The notes under the pieces are model-generated. The model searched no databases and was not told the origin of the DNA. It was given only the letters and a program-made list of their open reading frames with translations. Positions 39,401-59,226 of a stretch of DNA of 64,000 nt are shown one piece after another. Origin of the DNA: Bacteroidales bacterium. GTDB lineage: Bacteria > Bacteroidota > Bacteroidia > Bacteroidales > VadinHA17. Every line of letters begins with the position of its first letter. The stretch's first letter is position 1. The translations under genes and the position numbers were made by a program. The stretch spans positions 20,015-84,014 of the forward strand of contig JANTHB010000001.1 of the NCBI GenBank assembly GCA_024762655.1, given 5' to 3'.

Positions 39401-41764
39401 ATGACATCACGTGTTGAAAAACTAAGAGAGCAGAGCCTGAATGCGGTCAACCGCATCTCGCCCGAGCGGGCCGTGCTGATCACGGAATTCTACAAGAGCC
39501 AGGATGCCCGGGGCCGGTCGGTCCCGGTGCAGCGGGCGCTGGCGCTGGATCATTTCCTCAGCCACAAGAAACTCTGGCTGGGAGAGGGAGAGATGATCGT
39601 AGGGGAGCGTGGGCCGGCACCTAAAGCTACGCCCACCTATCCCGAGATCACCCTTCACTCGCTGAAAGACCTGGAGATCCTCGACGCCAGACCCAAGGTG
39701 TCATTTAAGGTGGAGGAAGAAGTGTACCGGGTCTACCGCGAGGAGATCATTCCTTTCTGGAGAGGCCGCACCAACCGCGACCGGCTCATGACTGCGATGG
39801 ACAAGAGCTGGCTGAACGCATATCATGCCGGCGTGTTCACTGAGTTTCAGGAGCAAAGAGCGCCGGGACATACGGTGCTGGGAGATAAAATCTATCACAA
39901 AGGGTTGATAGATCTGCAGCAGGAAATACGCCGGCAGATCCGGGCGTTGGATTATTTCCATGACCCGGAAGCGCTGGATAAACGGGAAGAGCTGACGGCC
40001 ATGAGCCTGGCTGCCGGCGCCGTGATGCGCTTTGCAGGACGCTATGCTGATCTTTTACACGGGGAGGCCGCCCGTGAGAAAGACCCCTTACGGCGCCGCG
40101 AGCTCGAAGAGATGGAGGCCGTCTGCCGGTGGGTGCCGGCCCACGCTCCCCGCACCTTCCACGAGGCTTTGCAGTACTATTGGTTTGTTCATCTGGGGGT
40201 GGTGTCGGAGCTGAATCCATGGGACTCTTTCAACCCGGGCCGTCTCGACCAGCACCTGCTGCCTTTCTACCGCAAAGGACTGGAGGAAGGTTCCCTCACG
40301 GAAGAAAAAGCCCGGGAGTTGCTATCCTGCTTCTGGGTGAAGTTCAACAACCATCCCTCGCCGCCGAAAATAGGAGTGACGGCACAGGAGAGCAACACCT
40401 ATACCGACTTTACCCTGATCAACCTGGGCGGGGTTACGCCCGGCGGGGAGGATGCCGTCAATAAACTGACCTTCCTGATCCTGGATGTGATAGAAGAGAT
40501 GCGACTCCTGCAACCCTCCTCCATGATCCAGGTGAGCCGGAAAAACCCGGACCGGTTTATTCACCGGGCGCTGGATATTATCAAGACCGGTTTCGGACAA
40601 CCCTCTGTGTTCAATACCGATGCTATCGTGGCAGAACTGGTACGGCAGGGTAAGGACATTGAAGATGCCCGGAGAGGAGGCGCCAGTGGTTGTGTGGAAT
40701 CGGGGGCATTCGGGACCGAAGCCTATATCCTTACCGGATATTTTAATTTCAACAAAGTGCTGGAGGTAACCCTGCACGACGGGACGGACCCACGCAGCGG
40801 GAAAAAGATCGGACTGACGACCGGCGATCCGCGCGGGTTTAAGAGTTTTGAAGAACTGATGCAGGCCTTTGAGAAGCAGATGAATTATTTCCTTGACATA
40901 AAGATCAGAGGAAATAATATCATCGAAAGGATCAATGCCCGGTATCTGCCGGCGCCGTTTCTGTCTTTATTCATTGACGATTGCATTGCCAACGGCAGGG
41001 ACTACAACGCAGGCGGGGCCCGCTATAATACCAGCTACATCCAGGGGGTGGGGCTCGGAAGCATTACGGACAACCTCACCTCTTTGAAATACCATGTTTT
41101 TGATAAAAAAGATATTTCCATGTCTTCCATGCTGAATATGCTGGAAAAGAATTTTGACGGGTATGATGAGATCCGGCACGACCTGGTGTATATGACCCCT
41201 AAATTCGGGAACGATGACGACTATGCCGACGTGAAGGCACGGGAGGTCTTTGAGATATTTTTTGAAGCGGTGGACGGTAGGCCTTCTTCACGTGGCGGGA
41301 CGTTTCGCATCAACCTGTTGCCCACGACCAGTCATGTGTATTTCGGGTCGGTGATCGGTGCCATGCCCGACGGGCGAAAAGCCGGAGAACCTCTTTCGGA
41401 AGGCATCTCGCCGGTGCAGGGCGCCGACCGTCAGGGTCCGACATCTGTGATCAGATCGGTCTCAAAGATCGATCATTTGCGAACGGGAGGGACCCTGTTG
41501 AACCAGAAATTCTCACCGGAATTTTTCAGCGATCAGGATGCCAAACAAAAGCTGACTGCTTTAATTCGTTCTTATTTCCGGTTGGACGGTCATCATATCC
41601 AGTTCAACGTGGTACGTGCCGAGACCCTGCGGGATGCACAGAAACATCCTGAGAGATACCGCGACCTGATCGTACGCGTGGCCGGATACAGTGATTATTT
41701 TAATGATTTGGGAGTGGAACTGCAGAATGAGATTATAAAGAGAACGGAACATGAGGGGATGTAA
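39401..41764 (+). CDS. hypD: Glycyl radical enzyme, trans-4-hydroxy-L-proline dehydratase-like (PFL2/eliminase class)
   Basis: 787 aa from the ATG at 39401 (the ORF-track TTG at 39377 is less likely). Glycyl-radical motif RVAGYSDYF and thiyl/acid loop GGASGCVESGAFG. Long stretches match my recollection of C. difficile HypD (FTEFQEQRAPGHTV, YWFVHLGV, GRLDQHL, LLPTTSHVYFG, GGTLLNQKF, DGHHIQFNV). Confidence 0.7.
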   Translation: MTSRVEKLREQSLNAVNRISPERAVLITEFYKSQDARGRSVPVQRALALDHFLSHKKLWLGEGEMIVGERGPAPKATPTYPEITLHSLKDLEILDARPKVSFKVEEEVYRVYREEIIPFWRGRTNRDRLMTAMDKSWLNAYHAGVFTEFQEQRAPGHTVLGDKIYHKGLIDLQQEIRRQIRALDYFHDPEALDKREELTAMSLAAGAVMRFAGRYADLLHGEAAREKDPLRRRELEEMEAVCRWVPAHAPRTFHEALQYYWFVHLGVVSELNPWDSFNPGRLDQHLLPFYRKGLEEGSLTEEKARELLSCFWVKFNNHPSPPKIGVTAQESNTYTDFTLINLGGVTPGGEDAVNKLTFLILDVIEEMRLLQPSSMIQVSRKNPDRFIHRALDIIKTGFGQPSVFNTDAIVAELVRQGKDIEDARRGGASGCVESGAFGTEAYILTGYFNFNKVLEVTLHDGTDPRSGKKIGLTTGDPRGFKSFEELMQAFEKQMNYFLDIKIRGNNIIERINARYLPAPFLSLFIDDCIANGRDYNAGGARYNTSYIQGVGLGSITDNLTSLKYHVFDKKDISMSSMLNMLEKNFDGYDEIRHDLVYMTPKFGNDDDYADVKAREVFEIFFEAVDGRPSSRGGTFRINLLPTTSHVYFGSVIGAMPDGRKAGEPLSEGISPVQGADRQGPTSVIRSVSKIDHLRTGGTLLNQKFSPEFFSDQDAKQKLTALIRSYFRLDGHHIQFNVVRAETLRDAQKHPERYRDLIVRVAGYSDYFNDLGVELQNEIIKRTEHEGM

Positions 41765-42735: not shown

Positions 42736-42899
42736 TTCCGCTTGTACCTCTCCTTGAGGAGAGGTCAAAACTTTCGGTGAAAGTTTTGGGAGAGGTGAAA
42801 CAAAAAATTTCGGTTTTTGTACCTTTAGGTCAAAATAAAACGAGCGCCTGCCGATTGCCTGCCGGCAGGGTAGGCAGGGCAGGCAGGAAATACTCTGAT

Positions 42900-45591: not shown

Positions 45592-46266
45592 ATGGTAGAT
45601 ATTCTTGAAAAACTGACGATTGTTGTAAAACGGGGGAAAGCGGATAAGAATTCGCCTTATCCTCCGGATCTGAAAGGTCAGGACGGCGCTGATGAGCTTA
45701 CGGCCGAAGCCTTGAAAATGGGGTTTACGCCGGACGAAGTATTGCAAAAAGCGCTGGTCAAAGGGATGCACCTGATCGGTGAGGATTTTAGTGCCGGCAG
45801 GGCTTTTGTCCCGGAGATGCTGATGGCTGCCAAGGCTATGAAAGCAGCCATGAAGCATATCGAGCCTTTTTTTAAGTCCGGTTCGGTGAAACAAAAAGGT
45901 ACCGTAATCATGGGAACGGTGCAGGGAGACCTGCATGATATCGGGAAAAACCTGGTGGCCATGATGATCGAAGGAGCCGGTTGGAAAGTGGTCGACCTGG
46001 GTTCCGATACCTCTTTTGAAAAGTTCTTGGCTGCCCTTGAAGAATATCCGGACGCTATTGTAGGCATGTCCGCCCTGCTAACGACTACCATGGTCAACAT
46101 GAAAGGAATCACAGAAAAGATCAAGGAGGTGAGTCCGAAGACGATTGTGATGGTGGGCGGAGCGCCCCTTTCACAGGATTTCTGCACCCAGATCGGGGCC
46201 GATTTCTATTCGCCCGATCCTCAGGGAGCTACGGAGTACCTGGATGCTCTGGTGAAAAGTGCATAG
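45592..46266 (+). CDS. Methyltransferase-cognate corrinoid (B12-binding) protein
   Basis: 224 aa. Helical cap domain followed by a Rossmann B12-binding domain with DxHxxG (GDLHDIGKN), SALLTTT and GGAPL blocks. Confidence 0.85.
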   Translation: MVDILEKLTIVVKRGKADKNSPYPPDLKGQDGADELTAEALKMGFTPDEVLQKALVKGMHLIGEDFSAGRAFVPEMLMAAKAMKAAMKHIEPFFKSGSVKQKGTVIMGTVQGDLHDIGKNLVAMMIEGAGWKVVDLGSDTSFEKFLAALEEYPDAIVGMSALLTTTMVNMKGITEKIKEVSPKTIVMVGGAPLSQDFCTQIGADFYSPDPQGATEYLDALVKSA

Positions 46267-46312
46267 TTTGTGGCTTTGCCAGGCGTATCCGCCAATCGGC
46301 GGAGGAGTTGGG

Positions 46313-46382
46313 TTTGTAGTTTGTAGTTTGAGGTTTGTAGTTTGAGGTTTGTGGTTTGTAGTTTGTAGTTTGTACTTTGTGG
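46313..46382. repeat. Heptanucleotide tandem repeat (TTTGTAG-like x10), nearly C-free on the plus strand
   Basis: tttgtag tttgtag tttgagg tttgtag tttgagg tttgtgg tttgtag tttgtag tttgtac tttgtgg, read directly. It lies between the corrinoid protein and the activase genes. Confidence 0.9.
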
Positions 46383-46437
46383 TTATTGTGAGCATTGATA
46401 AATTTTCACGTAACATTTTTCACTCCGGACTCAATAG

Positions 46438-47931
46438 ATGAAAGATCATTTTACAGTACATCTGGAGCCTTTGGGAAAGAAGGTGGAGGTGCCGGAGGGA
46501 ACCCCTTTGAAAGACGTATTGTTTTCCTACGGGGTGGAATTTCCCTGTGGAGGAAAAGGGATCTGTGGCGGATGCCGGGTGAAGGTGTTGAAAGGGGATG
46601 TATCTTTCGATGAACGACACAGGAGCCTGCTGGAGAAACTAAATCTGGATTTTTCCTGGCGGCTGGCATGCCAGAGTTATGTTACAGGAGATGTTACTCT
46701 GGAAATCGGACAGTTCGACACATTTATCCTGGCCGATAGTTCTCCTTTTCTTTTTAAGCCGCAGGAAGGATATGGCATTGCCTTTGACCTGGGTACCACA
46801 ACCATGGTGACCCAACTGGTCAACCTGAAAACCGGAAAGGTAATAGGAGTGGAGACCGCTGTAAATCCGCAGGCACAACATGGGGCGGATGTGATCTCCC
46901 GCATCGAATATGCCGTGTTGCAGGATGGACAGGCAACGCTTACCCGCCTGGTACGTGAGAAATTTGCCACCATGATCCACCGCCTGATCAGGAAAGCCGG
47001 AGGTATAGCTCCGGAAAAAATTGTAGTGGTAGGCAACACAGTGATGCATCATCTTTTTTGCGGCAGGGATCTGACACCCATGGCCTCTTATCCTTTTGAA
47101 ACCCCGGAGGGGGGCGCTTGTCATTTTACACCGGAAGAACTGGGTTTAAAAACGGATGATCATACGGATATTGAATTTCTTCCGGTGCTGGGCAGTTTCG
47201 TAGGAAGCGATATCCTGGCGGGCATCCTGGCCACAGGCATGGCAGAGAGCAAGGATCCTTTAATTCTGGTGGACCTGGGGACAAATGGGGAGATCGTAGT
47301 GGGAAACAGAGACAGGATCCTATGTGCCTCGACGGCAGCAGGCCCTGCCTTTGAAGGTACCAATATCCATATGGGCATGCGTGCCACAACAGGGGCCATC
47401 TCCTCGGTGACAAGGTCAGAGGAGGCAATCAGGGTGCATATAATCGGCAATGAGAAAGCCCGGGGGATCTGCGGCAGCGGACTGATAGATGCCATTGCGG
47501 TCTTTCTGGAAACCGGTAAAATTGATATCGGCGGCAGGATCAAAGGAGAATCCGGCCGTATTGACCTCACACCCGAAGTTTTTCTTACCCAAAAAGATAT
47601 TCGTGAATTGCAGCTGGCCAAAGGGGCTGTGGCTTCAGGCATTCAAATCCTGAGGGAAACGCTGGGCTTTGCCCCGGAAGATATCCGGAATGTGTATGTG
47701 TCCGGTGCTTTCGGTAGCTTTATCAATCTCGAAAATACCCGCCGGATTGGTTTGCTGAAATATCCGGCGGATAAGATCATCAAGATGGGAAATACGGCCC
47801 TGCTGGGGGCAAAAATGTCACTTTTTGAAAATGGAGATAAGATACGTGACATCCTGCAGAAAACCATCCATCTGTCTCTGGAAACCAATCCTGATTTTCA
47901 GGATATTTTTGCAGAGAACATGATATTCTGA
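46438..47931 (+). CDS. RACo/RamA-type reductive activator of corrinoid enzymes (2Fe-2S ferredoxin domain + ASKHA/DUF4445 ATPase)
   Basis: 497 aa. N-terminal ferredoxin Cys pattern CGGKGICGGC...C, then an actin-fold ATPase body (GIAFDLGTTTMV, DLGTNGEIV). Confidence 0.8.
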   Translation: MKDHFTVHLEPLGKKVEVPEGTPLKDVLFSYGVEFPCGGKGICGGCRVKVLKGDVSFDERHRSLLEKLNLDFSWRLACQSYVTGDVTLEIGQFDTFILADSSPFLFKPQEGYGIAFDLGTTTMVTQLVNLKTGKVIGVETAVNPQAQHGADVISRIEYAVLQDGQATLTRLVREKFATMIHRLIRKAGGIAPEKIVVVGNTVMHHLFCGRDLTPMASYPFETPEGGACHFTPEELGLKTDDHTDIEFLPVLGSFVGSDILAGILATGMAESKDPLILVDLGTNGEIVVGNRDRILCASTAAGPAFEGTNIHMGMRATTGAISSVTRSEEAIRVHIIGNEKARGICGSGLIDAIAVFLETGKIDIGGRIKGESGRIDLTPEVFLTQKDIRELQLAKGAVASGIQILRETLGFAPEDIRNVYVSGAFGSFINLENTRRIGLLKYPADKIIKMGNTALLGAKMSLFENGDKIRDILQKTIHLSLETNPDFQDIFAENMIF

Positions 47932-48047
47932 GGTATATTATGTTTACCGGCGCAATTTAAATACATATTAAAATATTTATTTAAATACATATTTAAAAGA
48001 GGGGGCTGTGGTCTTTCCGGGAGCCGGCCAAAAGGGGGCTGATACGA

Positions 48048-49508
48048 TTATTTAGGCGTACCGGAGTCTTCCATAAGCAGCAAATCTATCCAGGATTCTT
48101 TTTTACGGCGGTGTTTTTTATAGCGTTCGTTCATGTATTTTTTAACTTTTTTATGAAACAACCAGCAGGTTTTCATACGCAAGTTTAGTGTTTGGGATAA
48201 CTGAGTGATGTTAATGGTTCGGCCTGTGCTTGTGATGATCAGTATATACAAGGCTTTTTCGATCGGAAAACGGAGGTGGTGAAAAATGGTCCCTGCGGTA
48301 ACTGATTCTTTGTAGTTGCAAATCTTGCATCTTCTGACAAAAGGTTCATCCACACTGTATTTAGTGCTCCCACATTTCTTACAGGTAAATCCCTTCCCCC
48401 ATTTCAGATTGGCCAGAAGTTTGTAGCACGCATCTTTGTTTGGAAAGAATTTTCTGAATTCGTTGTAGTCCAGGAGCTTCTGCATAACACGTGCTTCCGA
48501 GATTCCTTTCAGTTCTTCCGACAGTTTGATATTGTGTTTTTTCAACAGTTCATTCATCCGGCGTATTTCATGGGATTGTTGTTCTATCTGCTCTTTTTGC
48601 TGCAGGATCTCATCTCTTTGCCGGCGTATTTCTTTGGTACGGACAGCTACCTGCATTTGCAATAACTTTTTCTGTCTCCGTGTGATCAGGAGTCTTGCTT
48701 CGAAGTACAGAAAAACAACCAGAATGATCAGGGACAGAATGATGAATTTGAAAAGAAGGGTCTTGGTAAAAGGAGGGATGATATGAATGATCAATTCAGC
48801 GGGTACAGGATTCCATACCCCATCGCTGTTGGCTGCTTTTACCTTGAAAATATATTTTCCCCCGTCCAGGTTGGTGTAGGTTGCTTCGCGACGGTGTGCA
48901 TCGGTATATTGCCAGGTCTTATCAAAGTTCTCGAGCATATAAGCATACTTGTTTTTTTCAGGATATTCGAAATGCAATCCCGTGAACTCAATGGTAAATA
49001 CATTGTGTTTATAATTAAGGATGATCTCCCTGGTTTCGGAGATGGGTTTAGTGAGTATGGTTTTCCCCAGGATCTTTTGGTGTGGGAATACCGGTTTCTG
49101 AAAGATTCTCAGGCCTGTGATCATGCAGATCGGAGGGATGGGGTTGTCAACGATTTTGTACGGATGGAAGAGGTTAAAACCGTTGGTTCCGCCAAAAAAC
49201 ATCGTTCCGTCCACCCCCGTGAGAGAGGAATTTTCAAGAAATTCCTCATCCTGCAGACCGTCTTCCACATCAAATTTTTTTATACGTATGATTTTATGTG
49301 TAACGCTATCCCTTATGATCTCTGCAAGGCCTTTGTTTGTACTAACCCATAGATTTTTATCTTTATCCTCTTCGATGGATTTGATGAAATTGGAAGGCAG
49401 TCCGTCTTCAGTGGTAATGCGGGAAAATCCTTTTCGGGGAGAAATTAGTTTATTTAATAGGTATGGTTTGTTTCCCGTGATTAACAGGAATGGTTCTTTT
49501 CCCTTCGA
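48048..49508 (-). pseudogene. 5'-truncated Reg_prop/Y_Y_Y sensor fused via TM and coiled coil to an IS1595-type zinc-ribbon/HTH module
   Basis: The ORF-track CDS 48048-49268 starts at a GTG. The same frame stays open upstream to 49508 and encodes a propeller repeat (GLPSNFIKSIEEDKDKNLWVSTNKGLAEI) with no start codon. It runs into the 3' end of the upstream gene. The C-terminus KWGKGFTCKKCGS...RRCKICNYKESVTAGTIFHHLRFPIEKA matches the IS1595 transposase N-terminal pattern, but no DDE domain follows. Confidence 0.55.
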
Positions 49509-51921
49509 TCAGGTAGCCCCTCAGTCCCGGAGGCAGTGTGACGGTAAAGGTTTTTTTATTATTATTTCCGGAATAGTCTACGATAATCATGCCACCGGGG
49601 TGAGGGAAAGCTGCATGAAACCTAGAGAGGTTTCCGGGATTAGGCTGTATTATCACCGTGGAGAAACCCGGTGATCCCGGATAAATACCTGCAATGGTAT
49701 GTAAAAAGTCAAAACAAGGGCTGGCACTCCATCCGTGGCATTCCGACCGGGGATTGATATCTGTTTCTCCGAAAGTAGTCATACCGTTCCTGATCATGTG
49801 AGTCCAGGGACCCAGCATTTCGGTATAGCGGTTTCCCATGCCTGTTTTTTGCAGGGCTCTGAAAAGATAGAACCTGAAGTAGATGGTGGCTTGTATCAGG
49901 GAAGAATCGGTCAGGATGCGATTCATAAGTGCCTGCTGTTCACTTTTTGGCAAAACATCGGCCAGGATTGCAAAGACATTGGTGTGTTGTGAGAAGATCT
50001 TTTTTTCCGGTGTTTCTGCAATCATCTTTCTGCCGGGGTCATAGCACAAACGGGTTACCTGCTCTGATATGCGGGTGGCCAGGGTCCGGTATTTTCCGGC
50101 TTTTTCTTTCAGACCAAAGAAATCAAATAATTCTGCAGCATTTTTCAGGGCGATCACGAATTGGAGGGAGACATTGGCAGAATGACCTTTGTCGGCACCC
50201 GGGGGAATCCCGTTTGGAAAGCCCCGGGCCCAGTCGGTAAAGTTCCACCATTCGAGACCGGACAACAAGCCGGTACTGTCAATGTGTCTTTCGAACCATT
50301 CCAGAACATCCGAAATACCTGGGAGAAAATCCCGGATAAAGCCGGGATCGTTCCTGTACATGAAATAATCGTGGATCATATCGATCCAGAGCAGGGAATA
50401 GGGCGGAATAATCTGGGTGATATAAGCAGGGTATCTGCTTTGGGTGAGACCGTCCGGGATGCGTGAGTTGTCGAACTGTCGTATGGCCTTGCGCATCAGC
50501 CGGTCGTCGCCTGAGACACACAGGGATACCAGTGCTTCTATCCGTGTATCCCCGATGTATTGTAGTTGTTCATAGTAAGGATCCATGTAGGTTTCTGCCG
50601 CAGAATTACGGATTGTTCTCCAGGCAACCTGCCAGATCCTGGTAAGCAGGGTATCGTCAGATTCAAAACGGGCTTTCTGCTGGAAAGGATAAACCGTGTA
50701 AACACTGTGGTAATCTTCCAGGATAAGGGGTTCGTTACCGGTTTTTATTTCAAACTGAACAAACCGGTAGGTGCGTCTGCCCCAGGGAACAAAGCTCCTG
50801 TGGTCACCACCGTCGGGTAGCAGGATATCGTAGATGCCGCGGATTTCTTTATTTTTGAAAATATTCCTGTTTCCTTTAAGGTCGTAATAGCTGAGGTTCC
50901 CGTCCGAAGTGTTCTCATATGATGGGGTTGTTTTAAATAATGCTTCCGCATAGGTGATTTTGATACGGCTGTTTTTCCCCTTGCTATAAGTCAATTCAGG
51001 ATATCCGGTGGTGTGAAAGGTCTGGTCGAGTAAAAGAGAGATTGTGGTATTGGAAGGAATAACCAGATGGCCGGTACCATTCAGAAAGGCCGGGTCCGGG
51101 TCCATGTTTTCAGATCTTATTATCTTCGGGAACCTTTGTGTTTCTCGTTCCATAAATGGTATCGTGCGGGGTACGAGGAACCAGGTGCTACCGTATAAAA
51201 ATCCTCTGCCTACGGCAAATTCCACGGTGGCTTTTTTGGGCCTGAGCCAGTCCGAATCATCATATCCGGGTTGTTTCCATCCCCAGGGATGTTTTTTCCC
51301 ATCCATTTTATCTCCGGGGCCGGCGGCATAATAAGCCCCCAGGGAATCACTGACAAAAGGGATGTCTTCATACGCAGCATCCCGTATGACTTTCCATGTC
51401 ATTGTTCCCGTATTGACATTTAAGGGGAGATTTTTATCTCCTTGCAGGATCAATGCGGTTTGAAAGGTCTGTTGGGCAGCTTTCCGGTATTCTCCGAAGT
51501 TGATCACTTCCATGGCCAGGGTGTTTTTACCTTTTAGCAGATAGGGTGCTATATCGGTAGTCTCATAACGCCAGTTTAAGAGATCCCCTTCTGCGGGTCC
51601 TGAGCATATGAAGGTGCCGTTGACGTAAAACCTGTAACGGTTATCGGCAGATAAAAAAACCCTGAACGAATCCGGGATGGCGGTGAGAGTGAAATCTTTT
51701 CTGAACAGAAAAACTCCATAGTCCAGGGTTGAGGCTTCCGGATGAGTAATCCATTGAGCCGTCCAGGCATGTTTAAGCTGAGTATAGTCTTTCCCTTGGA
51801 AGTTAACCTCTACAGAGGATTCCTGTGCCTCTGAGAGACGCGGAAAAAACAGGACGCTTGTTCCCACGAGAAGAAGGAACAAACATACAGGCCGGAATAT
51901 GGAATGCAGGGTTCGGTTCAT
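49450..51921 (-). CDS. GH78-like alpha-L-rhamnosidase family glycoside hydrolase (secreted)
   Basis: 823 aa with a signal peptide. Rhamnosidase-N-like region (AQWITHP, LFRKDFTL, RYRFYVNG) and a six-hairpin region (DPYYEQLQYIGDTRIEAL). Assigned from motif recall only. Confidence 0.55.
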   Translation of the reverse strand: MNRTLHSIFRPVCLFLLLVGTSVLFFPRLSEAQESSVEVNFQGKDYTQLKHAWTAQWITHPEASTLDYGVFLFRKDFTLTAIPDSFRVFLSADNRYRFYVNGTFICSGPAEGDLLNWRYETTDIAPYLLKGKNTLAMEVINFGEYRKAAQQTFQTALILQGDKNLPLNVNTGTMTWKVIRDAAYEDIPFVSDSLGAYYAAGPGDKMDGKKHPWGWKQPGYDDSDWLRPKKATVEFAVGRGFLYGSTWFLVPRTIPFMERETQRFPKIIRSENMDPDPAFLNGTGHLVIPSNTTISLLLDQTFHTTGYPELTYSKGKNSRIKITYAEALFKTTPSYENTSDGNLSYYDLKGNRNIFKNKEIRGIYDILLPDGGDHRSFVPWGRRTYRFVQFEIKTGNEPLILEDYHSVYTVYPFQQKARFESDDTLLTRIWQVAWRTIRNSAAETYMDPYYEQLQYIGDTRIEALVSLCVSGDDRLMRKAIRQFDNSRIPDGLTQSRYPAYITQIIPPYSLLWIDMIHDYFMYRNDPGFIRDFLPGISDVLEWFERHIDSTGLLSGLEWWNFTDWARGFPNGIPPGADKGHSANVSLQFVIALKNAAELFDFFGLKEKAGKYRTLATRISEQVTRLCYDPGRKMIAETPEKKIFSQHTNVFAILADVLPKSEQQALMNRILTDSSLIQATIYFRFYLFRALQKTGMGNRYTEMLGPWTHMIRNGMTTFGETDINPRSECHGWSASPCFDFLHTIAGIYPGSPGFSTVIIQPNPGNLSRFHAAFPHPGGMIIVDYSGNNNKKTFTVTLPPGLRGYLIEGKRTIPVNHGKQTIPIK

Positions 51922-51958
51922 GATGCATTTTTCCTGAAAGGATTAATAACGGATAAAA

Positions 51959-52936
51959 TCATTTGGCTATCTTAGATTTGTCAACGCCCAGAAAAGAGAT
52001 ACCATTCCACACATCACTGACCACCAGGTTGTTCTCAATGGTCCAGTTGTAAAAGTATCCGTCAAAGCAACCGATCCCCTGCATCATCGATTTCTCGATC
52101 TGATTGGTATCCGTATAGCTGATGATGATATTATTGCGGAGGACCACGTCACGGACGGTCTCTTCCACACCGCCCACCGCGCTGGTGTAGCTTTGGAACC
52201 CGTCGTCATGGTTGCCGGGACCTTCATCAGAAGGACTGTAACCGGTCACGTCATAACAGTTTTTTACAAAATTGTTTTCATACCGGCAATAGCTGGCCAG
52301 CCCGCGTATGGCATCACCTACAAAATTCTCGATCGTGTTGCCTTTTATTATGGTATGCTGCCCTTCCACCACCAGAGCAAAGTTAATATTTCGGATATGA
52401 TTGTTATACAGACCACTTTCGCTGCTTTTTATCATAAAACCGCTGGAGGTGCGGTTGAACCAGTCGGTGCGATTCCAGTTTTTGGTGTCGGCGTTGCTGT
52501 AAACGTCACAATCCTCAAAAAGAATGTGATCCGAATTGGAGCTGGTCTGTACCAGGAAGATCATGTCGTATACATCATTGCCTTCAGGCAGTTCCGAGGA
52601 GATATGCAGGCCCTCGATTTTCCAGTAGGAGGCGCTGGAAAATTTGATTGACTCCACCATTGCCGTATCACTCCCGGTTGGGATAACGACCACATAATTG
52701 CTGTTTCTACCGAAGAGATAAGGCTTGCCATGGTTCCCCGGCATCAGGAAGATCGTGTCCCCCGCCTGAAAGGATTTGTGGGCTTCAAAAACAGCCTGCA
52801 ACGTGCTCCATGCTGTTGCCGGTGTATATCCGCTGTTTGCCATGCTGCCATTCACCAGATCGCAATAATAACTCACAGCAACAGCTTCTAACGAATAGAA
52901 CAGGACCAACCCTGCCAGTATTATGAACTTCCTCAT
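51959..52936 (-). CDS. Secreted right-handed parallel beta-helix repeat protein (glycan lyase/hydrolase-like)
   Basis: 325 aa. Signal peptide and PbH1-like repeats (NNHIRNINFALVVEG, KGNTIENFVGDAIRG, ENNFVKNC, RNNIIIS). Confidence 0.45.
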   Translation of the reverse strand: MRKFIILAGLVLFYSLEAVAVSYYCDLVNGSMANSGYTPATAWSTLQAVFEAHKSFQAGDTIFLMPGNHGKPYLFGRNSNYVVVIPTGSDTAMVESIKFSSASYWKIEGLHISSELPEGNDVYDMIFLVQTSSNSDHILFEDCDVYSNADTKNWNRTDWFNRTSSGFMIKSSESGLYNNHIRNINFALVVEGQHTIIKGNTIENFVGDAIRGLASYCRYENNFVKNCYDVTGYSPSDEGPGNHDDGFQSYTSAVGGVEETVRDVVLRNNIIISYTDTNQIEKSMMQGIGCFDGYFYNWTIENNLVVSDVWNGISFLGVDKSKIAK

Positions 52937-53075
52937 TTGTACTACCCTCTTATTTTAGCAGATTTTAACAGACAAAATATTCCTGCTTCAAAAATACAAT
53001 TTTTTAACTGAATCACACAATCGTTTGCGTTAATCGTTAAGAAATGTTTTATTTGTACTTCAAATCATAAACGAC

Positions 53076-53408
53076 ATGAATCCTTTACTGGGAAATTTTT
53101 ATCACGCGTTGGGGGGGCAGGCGGCTGCCAGTGTTTATATTCCTTACAACAAAGTAAAGGACTGGGCGTGGGAGGTGTACTGGTTGACGGGAGGTTTTTT
53201 CTCCTGGATTCTGATGTCCTGGCTGGTCTCTCTGATTTTTGTTCCCGGCCTGCGGGAGTTGATGCACAGTGTCCCGTTGAATAATCTGATCTGGCCTTAT
53301 GTTTTTGGTGTGTTGTGGGGGATAGGAGGGCTTACCTTTGGTCTGACCATCCTGGTGGTATCCATTTTTAACATAGGAGCCGGGAATTACATTCAGCAAT
53401 TTGAATGA
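53076..53408 (+). pseudogene. rhaT: Truncated L-rhamnose:proton symporter (N-terminal ~90 of ~340 residues)
   Basis: The 110-aa ORF aligns by eye with the E. coli RhaT N-terminus (YHALGGQAAASVYIPYNKVKDWAWEVYWLTGG vs [32 protein letters not shown]; ...WGIGGLTFGLT vs WGIGNINYGLT). It then diverges and stops, overlapping the next gene start. Confidence 0.7.
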
Positions 53409-54508
53409 CAGAAATAAATAATATAATGACACCAAAAGAGCGTTTTGCAAAGACCATGCGTCACGAAAATCCTGACCGGCCCCCCATTTTTGTGACGTTC
53501 ACCCCTCAGGTGGCACGGAAAATGTCGGATCATCTGGGTATGCCTTACGAGGATCCCTATGATTCGCTGCTGTCCACGCGTATCTCGCACATGGACCTGC
53601 TCACCTCACTGGGCAACGACTTCGTTGGTATCGCAGCCTGTGCCCCGGACAATTTTCCTACCCGGGATACCGGAAACGGGATTTTAGAAAATGAATGGCA
53701 TATGAAGTTCATTGATCAGGGGATTTATTTTGAGTTTTATGAATATCCCCTTGCACATGCAGCCACCAAAGCGGATATTGATAATTTCGATTTTCCGGAT
53801 CCTTATGCTCCCGGACGATTCGATGTTGCCAGGGCAAATTACAGCAAGTATAAAGATGAATATGTGATCGTAGCGGACCTGGAAACGGCTATTTTTGAAA
53901 CATCCTGGTACCTGGTGGGTCTGGAAAAGCTGCTTGTTGACATGATGATGAGCGCTGAATATGTAGAGCCTCTGCTGGATCGTATCATGGAGGTGAATCT
54001 GGCCATTGGAAAAGAGCTGATTGCCATGGGGGCCGACATGATCTGGGCCGGTGATGATTTCGGCTCACAGAAGGGGATGCTGATCTCCCCGGACTTGTGG
54101 AGACAATATTTCAAACCCCGAATGAAATATATGTTTGAAGAATTCCGGAAAGTGAATCCGGACATTAAGATCGCCTGGCATACATGTGGCTCTGTCCTGC
54201 CCATCATCCCAGAGCTTATAGAGATCGGTCTGGATGTGCTTAATCCCATTCAACCGTTGGCGGCAGGGATGGATGCGGAATTCCTGAAAAAGACTTACGG
54301 AGACCAGTTGGTCTTTTTCGGCGGCTTAGATATACAGAAACTGATGCCTACCGGGACGCCGGAAGATATCCGGGCCGAGGTGCGACGTTTGAACAGGATC
54401 CTGGGAGAGAACGGCGGGTATATCATCGCCCCGGCACATAACATTCAGGATGATACCCCCGTGGAAAATATTATGGCCTTTTTTGATGAAGCCAAAAAAC
54501 CGCTGTAG
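53405..54508 (+). CDS. Uroporphyrinogen-decarboxylase (URO-D) family protein, MtaA/CmuA-like corrinoid methyltransferase candidate
   Basis: 367 aa. URO-D/MtaA-like N-terminus (TPKERFAKTMRHENPDRPPIF) and C-terminal blocks (WAGDDFGSQKGMLISP, AWHTCGS, LNPIQP). An alternative start lies at 53426. Confidence 0.7.
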   Translation: MTEINNIMTPKERFAKTMRHENPDRPPIFVTFTPQVARKMSDHLGMPYEDPYDSLLSTRISHMDLLTSLGNDFVGIAACAPDNFPTRDTGNGILENEWHMKFIDQGIYFEFYEYPLAHAATKADIDNFDFPDPYAPGRFDVARANYSKYKDEYVIVADLETAIFETSWYLVGLEKLLVDMMMSAEYVEPLLDRIMEVNLAIGKELIAMGADMIWAGDDFGSQKGMLISPDLWRQYFKPRMKYMFEEFRKVNPDIKIAWHTCGSVLPIIPELIEIGLDVLNPIQPLAAGMDAEFLKKTYGDQLVFFGGLDIQKLMPTGTPEDIRAEVRRLNRILGENGGYIIAPAHNIQDDTPVENIMAFFDEAKKPL

Positions 54509-54822
54509 TTCCGGAGAAAAAGCCATTTGTCGATAATTATTTCAATTATTGCGCAAATAGCAAAAAAGTAAAACCTGAAAACCGGCAGGCATTGCGATAA
54601 TGCATCCGGTTTCTCCGATAAACGTATAAACTCCCTGCAATACCGAAAAGGATCTATTCATTCGAGAAGAATATTTTTTCAGTTCTTTTGTTTTGCATTT
54701 TTGACTGGCTTTTTACCGGACACTACTGAAAAAATAAGTTAAAGTAAAAATAAAATGATTTGTAAATAGTAAACATTTAAAGGGAAAATGTATCTTTATC
54801 CCTCTTATTATTATTTATAAAT

Positions 54823-55590
54823 ATGAAACGCAGAAATATGCTTGGCCTTTCGGCAGCAGCTGCCGGAGCCGCTTTTTCCCGTCCTTTGGATGCCATGAAT
54901 CCTGAGAAACCGGAACTCCCTGAAAAGAAACTAAAGATTCTGGTGGCGGGTGCCCATCCCGATGATCCCGAAACCGGCTGTGGAGGAACAATCCTGAGGT
55001 ATACTCAGGCCGGGCATGATGTGACGGCATTTTATCTGACCCGTGGCGAAGCTGGTATTCCCGGAAAAACCCATGAAGAAGCTGCGAAAATCAGAACCGC
55101 CGAACTCCGTGAAGCTTGTAAAATTATGAAAGCGAAACCTGTGTTTGGCGGCCAGATTGACGGGGATACTGTCGTAGACAGGAGTCAGTATGAATTAGTG
55201 CTGGCCATGATCAAAAATGAAAACCCCGATATCATCTTTACCCACTGGCCGGTGGATACACATCGCGATCACCGGGCCTGCTCAATTCTGATCTATGACG
55301 CTTGGCTGGCGCAGGGAATGAAAGCAGCGCTCTATTATTTCGAAGTGGATGCAGGGGGACAGACCCAGACTTTCCATCCTACGGATTATTGTGATATCAC
55401 ACCGGTGATTCAAAAGAAACATGAAGCCTGTTTTGTGCATAAAAGCCAGAAAATCAAAGAAGAAACCTATCCCGAATTCCATACAAAAATGGAAAGGTTC
55501 CGGGGCCTTGAATACGGTTGTGACTATGCCGAGGCGTTTGTACGGCATTCGCGAAGTATTGAAGGTTGGATCCCTCCAAAAATGATATAA
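54823..55590 (+). CDS. PIG-L/LmbE-family deacetylase with Tat-like signal
   Basis: 255 aa. N-terminal MKRRNMLGLSAAAAGAAF (twin-Arg) and zinc motif AHPDDPE. Confidence 0.75.
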   Translation: MKRRNMLGLSAAAAGAAFSRPLDAMNPEKPELPEKKLKILVAGAHPDDPETGCGGTILRYTQAGHDVTAFYLTRGEAGIPGKTHEEAAKIRTAELREACKIMKAKPVFGGQIDGDTVVDRSQYELVLAMIKNENPDIIFTHWPVDTHRDHRACSILIYDAWLAQGMKAALYYFEVDAGGQTQTFHPTDYCDITPVIQKKHEACFVHKSQKIKEETYPEFHTKMERFRGLEYGCDYAEAFVRHSRSIEGWIPPKMI

Positions 55591-55628
55591 TATTTATTGT
55601 CCGTATAGTATTTCAATGAAAATATAAA

Positions 55629-57011
55629 ATGATGAAAAAGGCAGGTTTACTTTTAATTTTTGTGGTATTGGTCATTAATGTCCGAGCCCAATGGTTGCAT
55701 ATCAGTCCCGATGGCCGGCATCTGGTAAAGGATGACGGTTCGGTTTTCTTTTATATGGCGGACACCGGCTGGGAGCTCTTCCACCGCTGTACGAAAAATG
55801 AGACGGAGATGTATCTGAAGGATCGTCATGCCAAGGGCTTCAATGTGGTCCAGGCAGTGGTGCTGGCCGAGCTGGACGGGCTGCATACTCCCAACGCGGA
55901 AGGGGAAGTTCCGTTGGCGGATGATGATCCTCTGCACCCCAATGAAAAATACTTTCAGCATGTGGATTGGGTGATACAAAAAGCTGCCGAGCTGGGTATG
56001 TATATTGCTGTGCTTCCCACCTGGGGAGACAAGTGGAACAAGCGATGGGGGGTAGGGCCGGTGATCTTTGATACACCAGAGAAAGCCCGAAAATATGGAA
56101 AATGGCTCGGGGAAAGATACAAAGACCAACCCAACATCATCTGGATCCTGGGGGGTGATCGGAATCCGGAGAAACCTTTGCATTTTGAGATCATTCGCGC
56201 CATGGCCGGAGGAATCCATGACGGAGATCAGGGGAAACATCTGATTACCTATCATCCCAGCGGAGGGAAATCGTCATCGCAATGGTTTCACAGTACATCC
56301 TGGCTTGATTTTAATATGGCACAGACGGGACATGGAATGAGAAACAATCCGGTGTACATTCAAGTTGATCATGATTATAATCTGCATCCTGTGAAACCCT
56401 GCCTGGACGGAGAACCTCAGTATGAAGATCATCCCGTAGCCTTCTCTGCATTGAATGAACGGTTTGTGGCCTACGATGCCCGCCAGGCAGCTTATTGGGC
56501 TGTACTGGCCGGCGCTTTGGGGCATACTTATGGCAACCATAATATCTGGCAGATGTGGACCCCTCAACGAACGCCGATCACCTGGGCCCGGATCCCCTGG
56601 TACTATGCCATCCATCAGCCGGGAGCGATGCAGATGGGGTACATGCGCAAACTTTTCGAATCACGTCCTTTTCTGGAGATGGTCCCGGATCAATCCCTTC
56701 TGGCCAATGTTTACGGACAGGATAAAAATGTGATCCGTGCAGCCCGGGGTGCAGACCGTTCGTTTGTGATCGTCTATACCTCCTATGGCGCACCTGTTCA
56801 TCTGCGTATGGAGAAAATGACGGCCGCCATGCTTAACGGATACTGGTACAATCCGCGTGAAGGGAATAGCATTCCGATAGAGGCGTTTGCCAATCCGCAT
56901 AAAACGAAAGTTTTTGTTCCTCCGTCAGGCGGTACCCGTACCGACTGGGTGCTGGTACTGGATGATCCGGATAAAAACTATCCCGATCCGGGGAAATTTA
57001 TGCTGAAATAA
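55629..57011 (+). CDS. GH140-like (DUF4038) glycoside hydrolase, secreted
   Basis: 460 aa with a signal peptide. Matches the DUF4038/GH140 pattern: FFYMADTGWELFHR, GFNVVQAVVLAELDG, PNEKYFQHVDWVIQKAAELGMYIAVLPTWGDKW. Confidence 0.7.
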   Translation: MMKKAGLLLIFVVLVINVRAQWLHISPDGRHLVKDDGSVFFYMADTGWELFHRCTKNETEMYLKDRHAKGFNVVQAVVLAELDGLHTPNAEGEVPLADDDPLHPNEKYFQHVDWVIQKAAELGMYIAVLPTWGDKWNKRWGVGPVIFDTPEKARKYGKWLGERYKDQPNIIWILGGDRNPEKPLHFEIIRAMAGGIHDGDQGKHLITYHPSGGKSSSQWFHSTSWLDFNMAQTGHGMRNNPVYIQVDHDYNLHPVKPCLDGEPQYEDHPVAFSALNERFVAYDARQAAYWAVLAGALGHTYGNHNIWQMWTPQRTPITWARIPWYYAIHQPGAMQMGYMRKLFESRPFLEMVPDQSLLANVYGQDKNVIRAARGADRSFVIVYTSYGAPVHLRMEKMTAAMLNGYWYNPREGNSIPIEAFANPHKTKVFVPPSGGTRTDWVLVLDDPDKNYPDPGKFMLK

Positions 57012-57053
57012 ATTTTCGTCTCTTTCTCAATAACAGATTAAAGGCTTTATCAG

Positions 57054-57515
57054 ATGAAAACAAAAACAATCGCTTTGGTAGCTCATGATAACCGGAAAGA
57101 GGACCTGCGGGAATGGGTTGCCTATAACTACAGGAAGCTATTGCCGAACAGGTTGGTTTGTACGGGGACCACCGGGAAACTGGTCAAGGAGACCATAGAA
57201 AAGAATCTGGAAGGGAAAGAGTCCATGGACTTTGATATAACCCTTTTAAAGTCAGGTCCTTTGGGCGGAGATCAGCAATTGGGGGCAATGATCGCTGAAG
57301 GGAAAATAGATATGGTCATTTTTCTCTGGGATCCCATGGAACCCCAGCCCCATGATGTAGATGTAAAAGCCCTCCTTCGCATTACGGTGCTGAATAATGT
57401 CCCTACGGCCAGTAACCGTTCTACAGCCGATTATATGATTACTTCACCCTTGTTTGAGTCGGATTACACACCTGTGTTAAAAGATTATTCTTCCTATATT
57501 AATCGCCCTCTGTAA
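57054..57515 (+). CDS. mgsA: Methylglyoxal synthase
   Basis: 153 aa. IALVAHDNRKEDL, CTGTTG and GPLGGDQQ motifs. Confidence 0.9.
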   Translation: MKTKTIALVAHDNRKEDLREWVAYNYRKLLPNRLVCTGTTGKLVKETIEKNLEGKESMDFDITLLKSGPLGGDQQLGAMIAEGKIDMVIFLWDPMEPQPHDVDVKALLRITVLNNVPTASNRSTADYMITSPLFESDYTPVLKDYSSYINRPL

Positions 57516-57651
57516 CAATATTTTTTATTTTGGATAAGACTGCTGGTTCCCTGGTGATGGAGCGCACCTATATGGTAACTGGTATTGAAGATGATAACCG
57601 AAAAGGAACAGAATATATTATTTTTTATAAATTGGCGGGTAAAATATTCCT

Positions 57652-59034
57652 ATGAATACAGCAGCGACTCTTTCCCAGCGTCTGGATGCCCTGTATGAGT
57701 TTGACCGGGAGCCGGTAACTGAAAATAAACTTCAGAGTATAGGCAATTTCCTGGGCATGTATGCCGGCGAGCACGTGGCCGGCACCGAATTTGTCATCGG
57801 GATGCTGTTCGTCGCTCACGGGGTATCTGTGACGGACATGTTCCTCGGAGGCCTTATCGGGAATATCCTGGCGGTCTTCAGTTGGGCTTTCCTGACGGCC
57901 CCTATTGCTGTAAAAAAACGCTTGTCGCTGTATTGGCAGTTGAAGAAGATTGCCGGACCGGTCCTGGTTTTTATCTACAATATTGTCAATGCCCTGATGT
58001 TTTGTTTTCTTGCCGGGGCGATGGTGGCGGTTTCTGCTACGGCTGTGGGGATTCCTTTTCACATCACCATGCCCACGCTCCAGGACCTGTTTCCTAACAG
58101 TGTAGGCTGGGTAATTACCGTTTTTGCGGTCGGGGCCGTGATCACGACCATGGCCATTCTCGGGTTTGATGCGCTGGCACGTTTTGCCAAGGTCTCGGCA
58201 CCCTGGATGTTTCTGATTTTTTTAGCGGCAGCCATTGCCGTGATGCCCAAGCTGGGGGTATATCCCGGTTCCGGCAATTTCTGGGAAGTGGCCCGGACCA
58301 AGATATGGACCGGTGTAGCGCTCAAGGGTCAGTCTCAGTTTACGATCTGGCATGTGATCTTCTTTACCTGGCTGGCCAATGCGGCCATGCACCTGGGCAT
58401 GTCCGACCTGACCATCCTGCGGTATGCTAGAAAATGGACCTACGGTTTTGCCTCGGCAGTAGGAATGTTCCTGGGACATTATGTGGCCTGGATCGCTTCC
58501 GGGATTCTCTATGCTGCCGCTCACTCCGACGCTCCGGGGGTGGTGGCGTATGAGGCCCTGGGCGTTTCAGGGGCTCTGGCTGTGGTGATCGCAGGCTGGA
58601 CCACCGCCAATCCCACCCTGTACCGTGCCGGCATGGCGCTGCAGGTAGCCTCCGGCTGGAGCCGCTGGAAGGTGACCCTGGTGGCCGGTCTGGTGACCAC
58701 CCTGGCTGCTCTCTTCCCCGCCCTGGTGATGCGGTTGCTCGATTTTGTGGCACTCTACGGGCTTATCCTGGTGCCTATGGGCGCTGTCATCTTTGTCGAT
58801 TTCTATCTGCTGCCCCGGATGGGCCTGGAAGATGATTATGCCGAAAGACACGGTTTGTTGTTTAACCAGGCTGCCGGATGGACCTGGTTCCTGATGCTCG
58901 CGGCAGCATTGGCTGCAAACCTTTACCTGCATATCGATCTTTTCTTCCTGCCTTTTCCGGTATGGCTTATGGCAGGATTTTTATACATTCTCTTTAGTAA
59001 GCTTTATCAAAAACCAAAAACCGTTGCAGCATGA
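57652..59034 (+). CDS. NCS1/purine-cytosine-permease-like transporter, substrate unknown
   Basis: 460 aa with ~12 predicted TMs. The N-terminal region (GNFLGMYAGEHVAGTEFVIG) resembles CodB-like permeases; assignment from memory. Confidence 0.5.
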   Translation: MNTAATLSQRLDALYEFDREPVTENKLQSIGNFLGMYAGEHVAGTEFVIGMLFVAHGVSVTDMFLGGLIGNILAVFSWAFLTAPIAVKKRLSLYWQLKKIAGPVLVFIYNIVNALMFCFLAGAMVAVSATAVGIPFHITMPTLQDLFPNSVGWVITVFAVGAVITTMAILGFDALARFAKVSAPWMFLIFLAAAIAVMPKLGVYPGSGNFWEVARTKIWTGVALKGQSQFTIWHVIFFTWLANAAMHLGMSDLTILRYARKWTYGFASAVGMFLGHYVAWIASGILYAAAHSDAPGVVAYEALGVSGALAVVIAGWTTANPTLYRAGMALQVASGWSRWKVTLVAGLVTTLAALFPALVMRLLDFVALYGLILVPMGAVIFVDFYLLPRMGLEDDYAERHGLLFNQAAGWTWFLMLAAALAANLYLHIDLFFLPFPVWLMAGFLYILFSKLYQKPKTVAA

Positions 59035-59213: not shown

Positions 59214-59226
59214 AAAAGAGAGAGTC

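Follow-up and report, generated by a model that had tools for sequence, protein, structure and literature searches.

A corrinoid methyl-transfer module of a Bacteroidales bacterium as a candidate demethylase of O-methyl-L-rhamnose

Introduction

Which compound gives up its methyl group to a corrinoid-dependent methyl-transfer system that lies among the glycan-degradation genes of a Bacteroidales bacterium? The question is raised by a stretch of 64,000 nucleotides (assembly GCA_024762655.1, contig JANTHB010000001.1, positions 20,015 to 84,014; hereafter the window), which encodes a corrinoid carrier protein (CorP), an ATP-dependent reductive activase (RACo) and a methyltransferase of the uroporphyrinogen decarboxylase (URO-D) superfamily. 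We propose, with a probability of roughly one in two, that these are the carrier, activase and methyltransferase of a corrinoid-dependent O-demethylase for a methylated sugar, most likely O-methyl-L-rhamnose, with the URO-D protein acting as the substrate-specific methyltransferase. More tentatively, we suggest that this URO-D methyltransferase, which is widespread in at least four phyla, could form together with CorP and RACo the first O2-independent, cobalamin-dependent demethylase of carbohydrate methyl ethers, namely of O-methyl-L-rhamnose.

Algal, plant and bacterial glycans commonly bear methylated sugars, among them methyl-rhamnoses, methyl-fucoses and 6-O-methyl-galactose. Such sugars are reported to block ordinary catabolism, and in marine bacteria 6-O-methyl-D-galactose is demethylated by a cytochrome P450 in an O2-dependent manner (PMC6292453). 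Known corrinoid O-demethylases consist of a URO-D-superfamily methyltransferase I (MT I), a corrinoid protein and an ATP-dependent activator (PMC6739815, PMC3727330, PMC8630106, PMC10418091); four-component examples are the Odm and Vdm systems of Acetobacterium dehalogenans, those of Desulfitobacterium hafniense, MtvABC of Moorella and MtoABCD of Methermicoccus (PMC6739815, PMC3727330, PMC8630106).

The three proteins of the module

The CorP gene (45592–46266, plus strand) codes for a 224-aa protein with a cap domain and a Rossmann B12-binding domain (Pfam B12-binding_2, E 1.8e-16; B12-binding, E 1.2e-24). The motifs read in its sequence are the His-on motif GDLHDIGKN, which holds the DxHxxG histidine ligand, SALLTT, and VGGAP. 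Its top NCBIfam model is 'methyltransferase cognate corrinoid protein', the pyl_corrinoid model scores 170 bits, and the nearest solved structures are Moorella 1Y80 and the trimethylamine corrinoid protein MttC (7XCN).

RACo (46438–47931, plus strand; 497 aa) is of the RACo/RamA type, with 2Fe-2S ferredoxin, middle and ASKHA domains (Pfam Fer2, RACo_middle, and RACo_C_ter with E 6e-66) and a directly readable cysteine motif, CGGKGICGGC...C. It scores 326 bits against the AcsV-like model, which is under the cut-off, and also falls under the RamA equivalog cut-off; on these scores it is a member of the RACo/RamA family and not a named ortholog of AcsV or RamA. The window thus holds both the corrinoid protein, complete with its two domains and the DxHxxG ligand, and the ATP-dependent activase that characterize corrinoid O-demethylases.

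The third gene (53426–54508, plus strand) encodes the proposed MT I, a 360-aa protein matching Pfam URO-D (E 6.4e-33). An alternative start of the open reading frame (ORF) lies at 53405, but family alignment and an independent gene call both support 53426; the sequence-only reading of this DNA, which had recognized all three proteins correctly, as Pfam and NCBIfam searches and the motifs bear out, had given this one a length of 367 aa that has to be corrected.

The URO-D protein was placed by NCBIfam scores, a PDB match and motif comparison. It scores 86.7 bits against the MtaA/CmuA model TIGR01463 (cut-off 235), 61.6 bits against NF040654 (cut-off 400) and 46.3 bits against NF041608 (cut-off 600), so that by score it is nearer to MtaA than to HemE yet belongs to neither curated family. 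HemE (TIGR01464) was rejected as an identity at 23.7 bits against a cut-off of 303, as the earlier reading had anticipated, and the metal motif is of the methyltransferase type. Its sole sequence match in the PDB is MtaA (4AY7), which also leads the Foldseek list obtained with the AlphaFold2 model (pLDDT 93); HemE structures follow close behind, and with TM-scores of 0.65–0.72 for MtaA and HemE alike the search has no power to separate methyltransferase from decarboxylase.

The likeness to the methylcobamide:coenzyme M methyltransferases MtaA and MtbA, which are the best match in both sequence and fold, thus lies in the TIM-barrel URO-D fold and in the HxC motif of MtaA, which aligns with WH[ST]CG in the orthologs. 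Identity is, however, about 20%, and the scores are 46–87 bits against cut-offs of 235–600. The putative zinc site that is invariant in the orthologs, WH[ST]CG...APAHNIQ, is His-Cys-His (H252, C254 and H338 of the 360-aa protein), the third ligand being the histidine of APAHNIQ where MtaA has a cysteine, and the model has an additional beta-hairpin region at residues ~66–106 relative to MtaA. To our knowledge there is no coenzyme M metabolism in these bacteria. The assignment of the URO-D protein as MT I rather than methyltransferase II (MT II) is read from its genomic context.

Genomic context of the URO-D orthologs

When each species was represented by one genome, scanning yielded 80 loci whose URO-D orthologs have 57–92% identity. 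Their hosts include many families of Bacteroidota, the Melioribacteraceae (Ignavibacteriota), Calditrichota, and the Pirellulales and Phycisphaerales (Planctomycetota), with a single cultured strain among them, Carboxylicivirga sp. RSCT41. Neighbouring genes were clustered de novo over all ORFs of 83 loci and then annotated with Pfam and NCBIfam; the context counts refer to 79 non-redundant loci and to genes within 10 kb of the URO-D ortholog. Rhamnose genes (counted as RhaT, RhaA, RhaB, RhaM, RhaD-like, GH78 and GH106) are present in 49 of the 79, linking the orthologs to the L-rhamnose utilisation regulon; corrinoid-system genes are present in 20, both contexts coincide in eight, and 18 have neither.

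RhaT, the L-rhamnose/H+ symporter, is near the URO-D gene in 25 of the 83 loci and is its commonest immediate neighbour, lying directly upstream in 12 of the 79, while CorP is directly downstream in ten, GH78 directly downstream in eight and RACo directly upstream in six. Other recurrent neighbours in the 83 loci are RhaD-like class II aldolases and GH78 rhamnosidases (19 loci each), sulfatases (11), the L-rhamnose isomerase RhaA and AraC regulators (ten each), GH106 rhamnosidases (nine) and RhaM (six). In this set CorP occurs in 16 loci, RACo in 14, a protein resembling the MetH activation domain in 12, MTHFR/MetV in ten, a pterin-binding methyltransferase in eight and CobW in six. The MetH-activation-like protein is about 230 aa long, has weak similarity to the AdoMet-binding activation domain of MetH, and stands beside RACo or CobW in its 12 loci (among them L014, L015, L024, L034, L052, L056, L062, L063, L066, L070 and L083). 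In a neighbour-joining tree the orthologs form a single compact group in which rhamnose-linked and corrinoid-linked members are interleaved.

Because the URO-D gene is embedded in rhamnose transport and catabolism operons of four phyla, we consider a methylated sugar that yields rhamnose as the substrate, with O-methyl-L-rhamnose as the simplest candidate. The conserved context points to a methyl-rhamnose rather than to 2-O-methyl-fucose or 2-O-methyl-xylose. The idea that a sugar might be the methyl donor had been raised in the sequence-only reading, and it is strengthened by the rhamnose operons, some of which carry a full corrinoid array. The rationale then given for it, which invoked rhamnogalacturonan-II and the neighbouring GH140-type, PIG-L and BNR genes, does not survive: Pfam supports the identities of these neighbours and of GH78, but the GH140 and PIG-L genes belong to a lineage-specific, non-conserved insertion (insertion 2 below) absent from a relative in which the module is contiguous, and among the other loci GH140 recurs in only one and BNR in none.

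The gene arrays of several relatives are informative. In a Melioribacteraceae chromosome (L014) a single same-strand array runs GH94, RhaT, URO-D, LutC, LutB, rhamnulokinase (over its equivalog cut-off), RACo, CorP, pterin methyltransferase, MetV-like, MTHFR and MetH-activation-like. Saprospiraceae-type loci have the order URO-D, CorP, MTHFR, pterin methyltransferase and RACo, and one of them (L015) ends in a bifunctional rhamnulose-1-phosphate aldolase/SDR. The planctomycete loci contain a full rhamnose operon with URO-D between RhaM and RhaA. A third type of module reads CorP, a 450-aa MtaA-like URO-D paralog, CobW, MetH-activation-like, RACo, URO-D and RhaT. This 450-aa paralog (L062 and L063, for example L063 4328–5689; L005 12377–13729) has a C-terminal thioredoxin-like domain, lacks the histidine of HxC (FVCG...GCD) and is always followed by the CobW-type GTPase; it is a candidate acceptor-side methyltransferase.

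Across the corrinoid loci URO-D, CorP and RACo are constant, and the acceptor module varies, being a pterin methyltransferase with MTHFR, the MtaA-like second URO-D protein with CobW, or nothing nearby. It is because of this constancy that we assign the URO-D protein as the substrate-specific MT I. The sequence-only reading had taken it for the MtaA-like side of a system whose substrate methyltransferase was missing, and the pattern in relatives makes the opposite assignment likelier; what the window lacks is more likely an acceptor-side enzyme than a substrate-side one. That no partner methyltransferase is present was seen correctly: Pfam searches of all ORFs of at least 150 aa not nested in a longer ORF, together with tblastn using the relatives' proteins, found no pterin, MttB, MtaB or second URO-D methyltransferase and no MTHFR within the 64 kb, and so not the pterin-binding MT II of a corrinoid O-demethylase either.

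The group belongs to a wider URO-D branch comprising 1,399 clusters at 50% identity (E <= 1e-30). Four loci (L088, L089, L090 and L091) contain paralogs 41–45% identical to the window protein, located beside CUT2 sugar ABC transporters, a sulfatase, a GDSL esterase, a KDPG aldolase and PfkB; one of these paralogs has an MttB-family methyltransferase as its neighbour. These contexts suggest a larger family of sugar-linked URO-D methyltransferases.

Weighing the methyl-sugar reading

Several points weigh against a corrinoid-dependent methyl-rhamnose demethylase. In about 75% of the ortholog loci corrinoid genes are missing from the 10 kb around URO-D, and 18 of the 79 lack both kinds of context, so B12 dependence is not established for the orthogroup as a whole. 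As to conservation of the neighbourhood, which the sequence-only reading had named as a check on its proposal, the three genes are contiguous in a relative with an 81%-identical URO-D protein, and corrinoid genes are near only 20 of the 79 orthologs. Known corrinoid O-demethylases cleave aryl methyl ethers, from which phenolate departs far more readily than an alkoxide would from a sugar. Gene content does not reveal in which direction methyl groups flow, and the set of URO-D, CorP, pterin methyltransferase, MTHFR and MetH-activation-like protein also resembles a split methionine synthase. The 41%-identical paralog adjoins an MttB-family gene, a setting in which a URO-D protein is normally acceptor-side. 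TRAP transporters, KDPG aldolase and UxaE are encoded at some of the loci, and because these are uronate-type genes an acidic methyl sugar such as 4-O-methyl-glucuronate is a possible substrate. Finally, within the 64-kb window RhaA and RhaB were not found, RhaT is destroyed, and the acceptor methyltransferase is absent.

Two of these points lead to the alternative that fares best, though we consider it unlikely: the URO-D protein would be an acceptor-side enzyme like MtaA, MtbA or MetE that passes the methyl group of methyl-CorP to a thiol, for example homocysteine, and with the pterin methyltransferase, MTHFR and MetH-activation-like protein of the relatives would make up a split methionine-synthase-like or methyl-sulfur pathway. 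MtaA is the nearest solved relative and the HxC zinc motif is kept, the loci with pterin methyltransferase and MTHFR hold all functional parts of MetH as separate proteins plus MetF, the 41% paralog stands beside an MttB-family substrate methyltransferase, and a methyl-sulfur or methyl-selenide role has been proposed for orphan multi-URO-D clusters (PMC10418091). An acceptor-side role, however, leaves the rhamnose-operon embedding in four phyla unexplained. The third metal ligand is an invariant histidine where the thiol-alkylating MtaA has cysteine, the loci with the MtaA-like paralog already possess a separate Cys-bearing MtaA-like protein, and the scores of the window protein lie far under the MtaA/CmuA and MtbA cut-offs.

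The scarcity of nearby corrinoid genes allows a different explanation, to which we give less credence than to the thiol route: the URO-D ortholog may be a B12-independent rhamnose or glycan enzyme that catalyses some other zinc-dependent reaction, and its closeness to CorP and RACo in a minority of loci, this rearranged window among them, would be due to coincidence or to a side activity. Only 20 of the 79 loci have corrinoid genes inside the 10-kb limit, complete planctomycete rhamnose operons have URO-D without CorP, and the fold alone is ambiguous, with similar TM-scores to MtaA and HemE. Against this, CorP is immediately downstream in ten loci and RACo immediately upstream in six, an adjacency far over chance for a family with few copies per genome; in the nearest relatives of operon type the three genes directly follow one another; and both the NCBIfam scores, which prefer the methyltransferases to HemE, and the metal-site motif are of the methyltransferase type.

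The rhamnose context could also be indirect. The module might be a conventional aryl methyl ether O-demethylase for methoxylated aglycones (flavonoids or other phenolics) that GH78 and GH106 enzymes set free, which would account for its co-regulation with rhamnose use. Every characterised O-demethylase with a URO-D-type MT I uses phenyl methyl ethers (PMC3727330, PMC6739815, PMC8630106), GH78 is frequent near the orthologs, and GH78 enzymes are well known for their activity on flavonoid rhamnosides. We rank this proposal lower still: the genes most tightly linked to URO-D belong to the cytoplasmic sugar pathway (RhaT directly upstream, RhaM and RhaA flanking, rhamnulokinase, aldolase) and are not glycosidases, and the sulfatases, GH106 enzymes and beta-helix proteins present in many loci typify the use of polysaccharides, not of flavonoids. 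Many of the source metagenome-assembled genomes, moreover, bear labels that we take to be marine or hydrothermal.

Organization and rearrangement of the locus

In relatives of the type of L002 the module is contiguous. Three independent metagenome contigs share the order CorP, RACo, URO-D, a 460-aa permease, a 63-aa ORF and a class II aldolase-like gene, followed on the opposite strand by an aldo/keto reductase, and on two of the three a 65-aa ORF precedes CorP in the ORF calls. Protein identities between the window and the contiguous relative are 93% for CorP, 89% for RACo, 81% for URO-D, 95% for the permease and 94% for the aldo/keto reductase. Homology to L002 in a blastn comparison runs through RACo to 48143, resumes at 53437 and again at 57651, and covers the aldo/keto reductase region; these breaks show that the window has two insertions. 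A separately assembled 12-kb Logan contig has an arrangement identical to that of the window.

Insertion 1 (48144–53436, 5.3 kb) splits RACo from URO-D and contains a chimeric ORF, GH78, a beta-helix gene and a RhaT remnant. It corresponds to the block of ~5.4 kb that the sequence-only reading had noticed between these genes, now with breakpoints near 48143 and 53437; of the two truncated genes said to flank that block, the left one is the chimeric ORF and the right one is RhaT with an in-frame internal deletion. The chimeric ORF (48048–49448, minus strand; Pfam Y_Y_Y and Zn_ribbon_IS1595) lies at the left junction and consists of an N-terminally truncated HTCS-like sensor (propeller repeats, Y_Y_Y, transmembrane segment and coiled coil) fused in frame to the zinc ribbon of an IS1595 transposase. 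It is open to 49448, and its last ~30 codons extend into DNA that matches the ancestral intergenic region between RACo and URO-D. The ORF, probably a scar of rearrangement but still translatable, is gene-called at 406 aa in an independent assembly.

GH78 (49450–51921, minus strand; 823 aa) is an alpha-L-rhamnosidase with Pfam Bac_rhamnosid_N, 6H and C domains. The adjacent gene (51959–52936, minus strand) encodes a 325-aa right-handed parallel beta-helix protein with no Pfam match of its own. Its homologs of 430–560 aa carry PF13229, PF05048 and PF18962; the window copy is shorter, without their type IX secretion tail. The family adjoins RhaT/URO-D in seven loci, and the protein is probably a glycan-active hydrolase or lyase. 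The RhaT remnant (53076–53408, plus strand; 110 aa) matches the Pfam and NCBIfam RhaT models over its N-terminal ~97 aa only. It has lost about 233 codons in frame, with residues ~4–92 fused to 326–348 (tblastn, one frame), and alignment with L008 and L009 places the deletion junction at a short microhomology between the two internal repeats of the transporter.

The synonymous divergence (dS) of URO-D from the contiguous relative is 2.8, as against 0.65–0.73 for the flanking genes, and the window URO-D is closer to the L008 allele (92% amino acid identity), which adjoins an intact RhaT. Because URO-D is far more diverged than its flanks and closer to this RhaT-linked allele, a cassette has probably replaced the resident URO-D gene of a CorP-RACo-URO-D-permease-aldolase operon. 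The gene order would then be a mosaic in which an IS-associated 5.3-kb cassette, made up of GH78, the beta-helix gene, the RhaT remnant and a divergent URO-D allele, was swapped into the operon.

Insertion 2 (54509–57650), a gap in the blastn comparison with the contiguous relative, contains a PIG-L deacetylase (54823–55590), a GH140-type apiosidase-like hydrolase (55629–57011; Pfam 'Apiosidase') and a methylglyoxal synthase (MGS; 57054–57515), all on the plus strand, with PIG-L and MGS assigned by Pfam and NCBIfam. GH140 and PIG-L are rare near URO-D orthologs (2 and 3 of 83 loci, respectively).

Downstream lies an NCS1-like membrane permease (57652–59034, plus strand; 460 aa) with a weak match to cytosine permeases. 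It is 95% identical to L002 11202–12584, which is directly 3' of URO-D in the contiguous relative, and it occurs together with URO-D, RhaA and RhaT in planctomycete rhamnose operons (L048, L050 and L053); it is a candidate substrate importer. The class II aldolase-like protein (59206–60351, plus strand; 381 aa; Pfam Aldolase_II) matches the N-terminal part of the NCBIfam models for the bifunctional aldolase/SDR and RhaD_aldol-ADH. Its family is present in 19 of 83 loci, in L016 between RhaA and RhaT, and it is a probable rhamnulose-1-phosphate aldolase. The aldo/keto reductase (60448–61470, minus strand) is L-glyceraldehyde-3-phosphate reductase-like (NCBIfam PRK09912, 465.8 bits, over the cut-off) and is syntenic with the module in the contiguous relative.

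Strong purifying selection acts on CorP, RACo, URO-D and the NCS1-like permease, whose dN/dS values are 0.03–0.09 (0.06 for CorP and 0.09 for RACo, both against L002, and 0.03–0.04 for URO-D). URO-D could be transcribed from the divergent intergenic region at 52937–53075. The least probable of the alternatives, that in this genome the module is a decaying or non-functional leftover of IS-mediated rearrangement without transporter and acceptor enzyme, draws on the two insertions, the chimeric IS1595/HTCS remnant, the internally deleted RhaT and the lack of MT II, MTHFR, RhaA and RhaB in the 64 kb, but against it stand the full length and the low dN/dS of these four genes, the contiguous relative, which likewise has no adjacent acceptor enzyme, so that a distal partner is normal in the lineage, and the divergent intergenic region that URO-D retains for possible transcription.

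Proposed pathway

For the methyl-sugar demethylase that we favor, the following route can be envisaged. GH78 rhamnosidases, possibly with the beta-helix protein, would free methylated rhamnose from glycans, and a permease would take it up; the ancestral importer would be RhaT, and because RhaT is deleted here, the NCS1-like permease is the likely importer in this genome. The His-Cys-His metal site of the URO-D enzyme would activate the sugar methyl ether for transfer of the methyl group to the Co(I) corrinoid protein, giving free L-rhamnose and methyl-Co(III). With ATP and a low-potential electron, RACo would return accidentally oxidised Co(II) to Co(I).

In relatives, the pterin-binding methyltransferase would move the methyl group to tetrahydrofolate and the adjacent MTHFR would oxidise the methyl-tetrahydrofolate. 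The location of MTHFR fits such oxidative recycling, and an oxidatively running MTHFR beside a demethylase is known from Sphingobium SYK-6 (PMC11868366). In the loci with a second, MtaA-like URO-D protein, this protein and its CobW chaperone would take the acceptor role. In the window the acceptor enzyme is absent; it would therefore be encoded elsewhere, or the module is incomplete. Rhamnose would proceed through the isomerase, kinase and aldolase pathway, to which the aldolase-like gene at 59206–60351 may contribute, so that both the sugar and the methyl group, as methyl-tetrahydrofolate, would enter metabolism.

Comparison with known systems

The module shares with the four-component O-demethylases a URO-D-superfamily protein as the proposed MT I, a two-domain DxHxxG corrinoid protein and an ATP-dependent activase, and the loci of relatives have the pterin-binding MT II feeding tetrahydrofolate. 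It differs in that those systems act on phenyl methyl ethers, whereas the conserved surroundings here are those of L-rhamnose breakdown and glycan degradation; its hosts, which belong to Bacteroidota, Ignavibacteriota, Calditrichota and Planctomycetota, are not acetogens; the window itself has no MT II; and the URO-D protein forms its own clade, over no curated cut-off. Nearest among 'orphan' systems is the type 1 mlp cluster, which has at least the URO-D homologs Mlp2 and Mlp3 alongside CorP and Ram/RACE, is found mostly in Firmicutes and has a proposed methyl-sulfur or methyl-selenide role (Kountz & Balskus, PMC10418091). The window has one URO-D gene only, and that paper makes no mention of Bacteroidota, sugars or rhamnose.

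The job proposed here, removal of a sugar methyl ether before catabolism in a setting of polysaccharide utilisation, is that of the P450 demethylase of 6-O-methyl-D-galactose (PMC6292453). That enzyme, from an unrelated family, works by O2-dependent hydroxylation and releases formaldehyde, whereas the present system would be O2-independent and would save the methyl group in the form of methyl-B12 or methyl-tetrahydrofolate. As with the tetrahydrofolate-dependent aryl O-demethylases of SYK-6 (PMC11868366), MTHFR adjoins the putative demethylation genes, both in L014 and in the other loci with pterin methyltransferase and MTHFR; the LigM-type enzymes of SYK-6, by contrast, use tetrahydrofolate directly, without a corrinoid, and no LigM-type enzyme is present here.

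Other genes and features of the window

The only rhamnose-related genes in the window are GH78, the RhaT remnant and the aldolase-like gene; the other content includes housekeeping genes, peptide utilisation genes and a glycyl radical enzyme of the hydroxyproline dehydratase type. The latter, a trans-4-hydroxy-L-proline dehydratase encoded together with its glycyl-radical activase (38500–41764, plus strand), scores 1225 bits against the HypD equivalog model, over the cut-off. Upstream of the pair are a POT peptide transporter, an M20 peptidase and DPP-IV, and all of these together form a peptide and hydroxyproline fermentation island. HypD-like glycyl radical enzymes (48–54% identity) also lie near URO-D orthologs in L054, L074, L082 and L085; these may have another function, such as that of a propanediol dehydratase acting on 1,2-propanediol that stems from rhamnose.

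An Rfam scan at gathering thresholds found no cobalamin riboswitch in the window, only a tRNA and a Whalefall-1 RNA. The match to this small RNA (42744–42797, plus strand; 41.8 bits, gathering score 37) lies about 200 nt upstream of the BNR/sialidase-like gene that begins at 43001. Scans of the window for sigma-70 promoters and terminators returned hits at the level of shuffled sequence, with models ill-suited to Bacteroidota, and were not used. A 757-aa ORF near the right end (61632–63905, minus strand) has no family match and is probably a shadow ORF; at that place the syntenic L002 (from 19669) has a plus-strand UvrD-type helicase, which would overrun the end of the window. At the left end, a 623-aa protein (1063–2934, plus strand) fuses a cyclic-nucleotide-binding domain to a class II fumarase/aspartase (Lyase_1 and FumaraseC_C), an unusual architecture.

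Significance

Literature searches returned no corrinoid- or B12-dependent carbohydrate demethylase and no link between a URO-D homolog and rhamnose; the only route of sugar demethylation found was the O2-dependent P450 (PMC6292453), and a search on O-methyl sugars gave occurrence reports only. With no published description of such a system found, these searches suggest that the proposed sugar demethylase would be an oxygen-independent route so far undescribed. If the proposal is correct, it would explain how anaerobic and sediment-dwelling glycan degraders handle methylated sugars, and the chemistry of corrinoid O-demethylases, known for aryl ethers, would be extended to the aliphatic ethers of sugars. 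Polysaccharide degradation would gain a B12 requirement, and glycan breakdown would be tied to one-carbon metabolism. A function would be gained, too, for an extensive branch of the 'uroporphyrinogen decarboxylase family' that lacks annotation and whose sampled members lie beside sugar transporters, sulfatases and sugar kinases.

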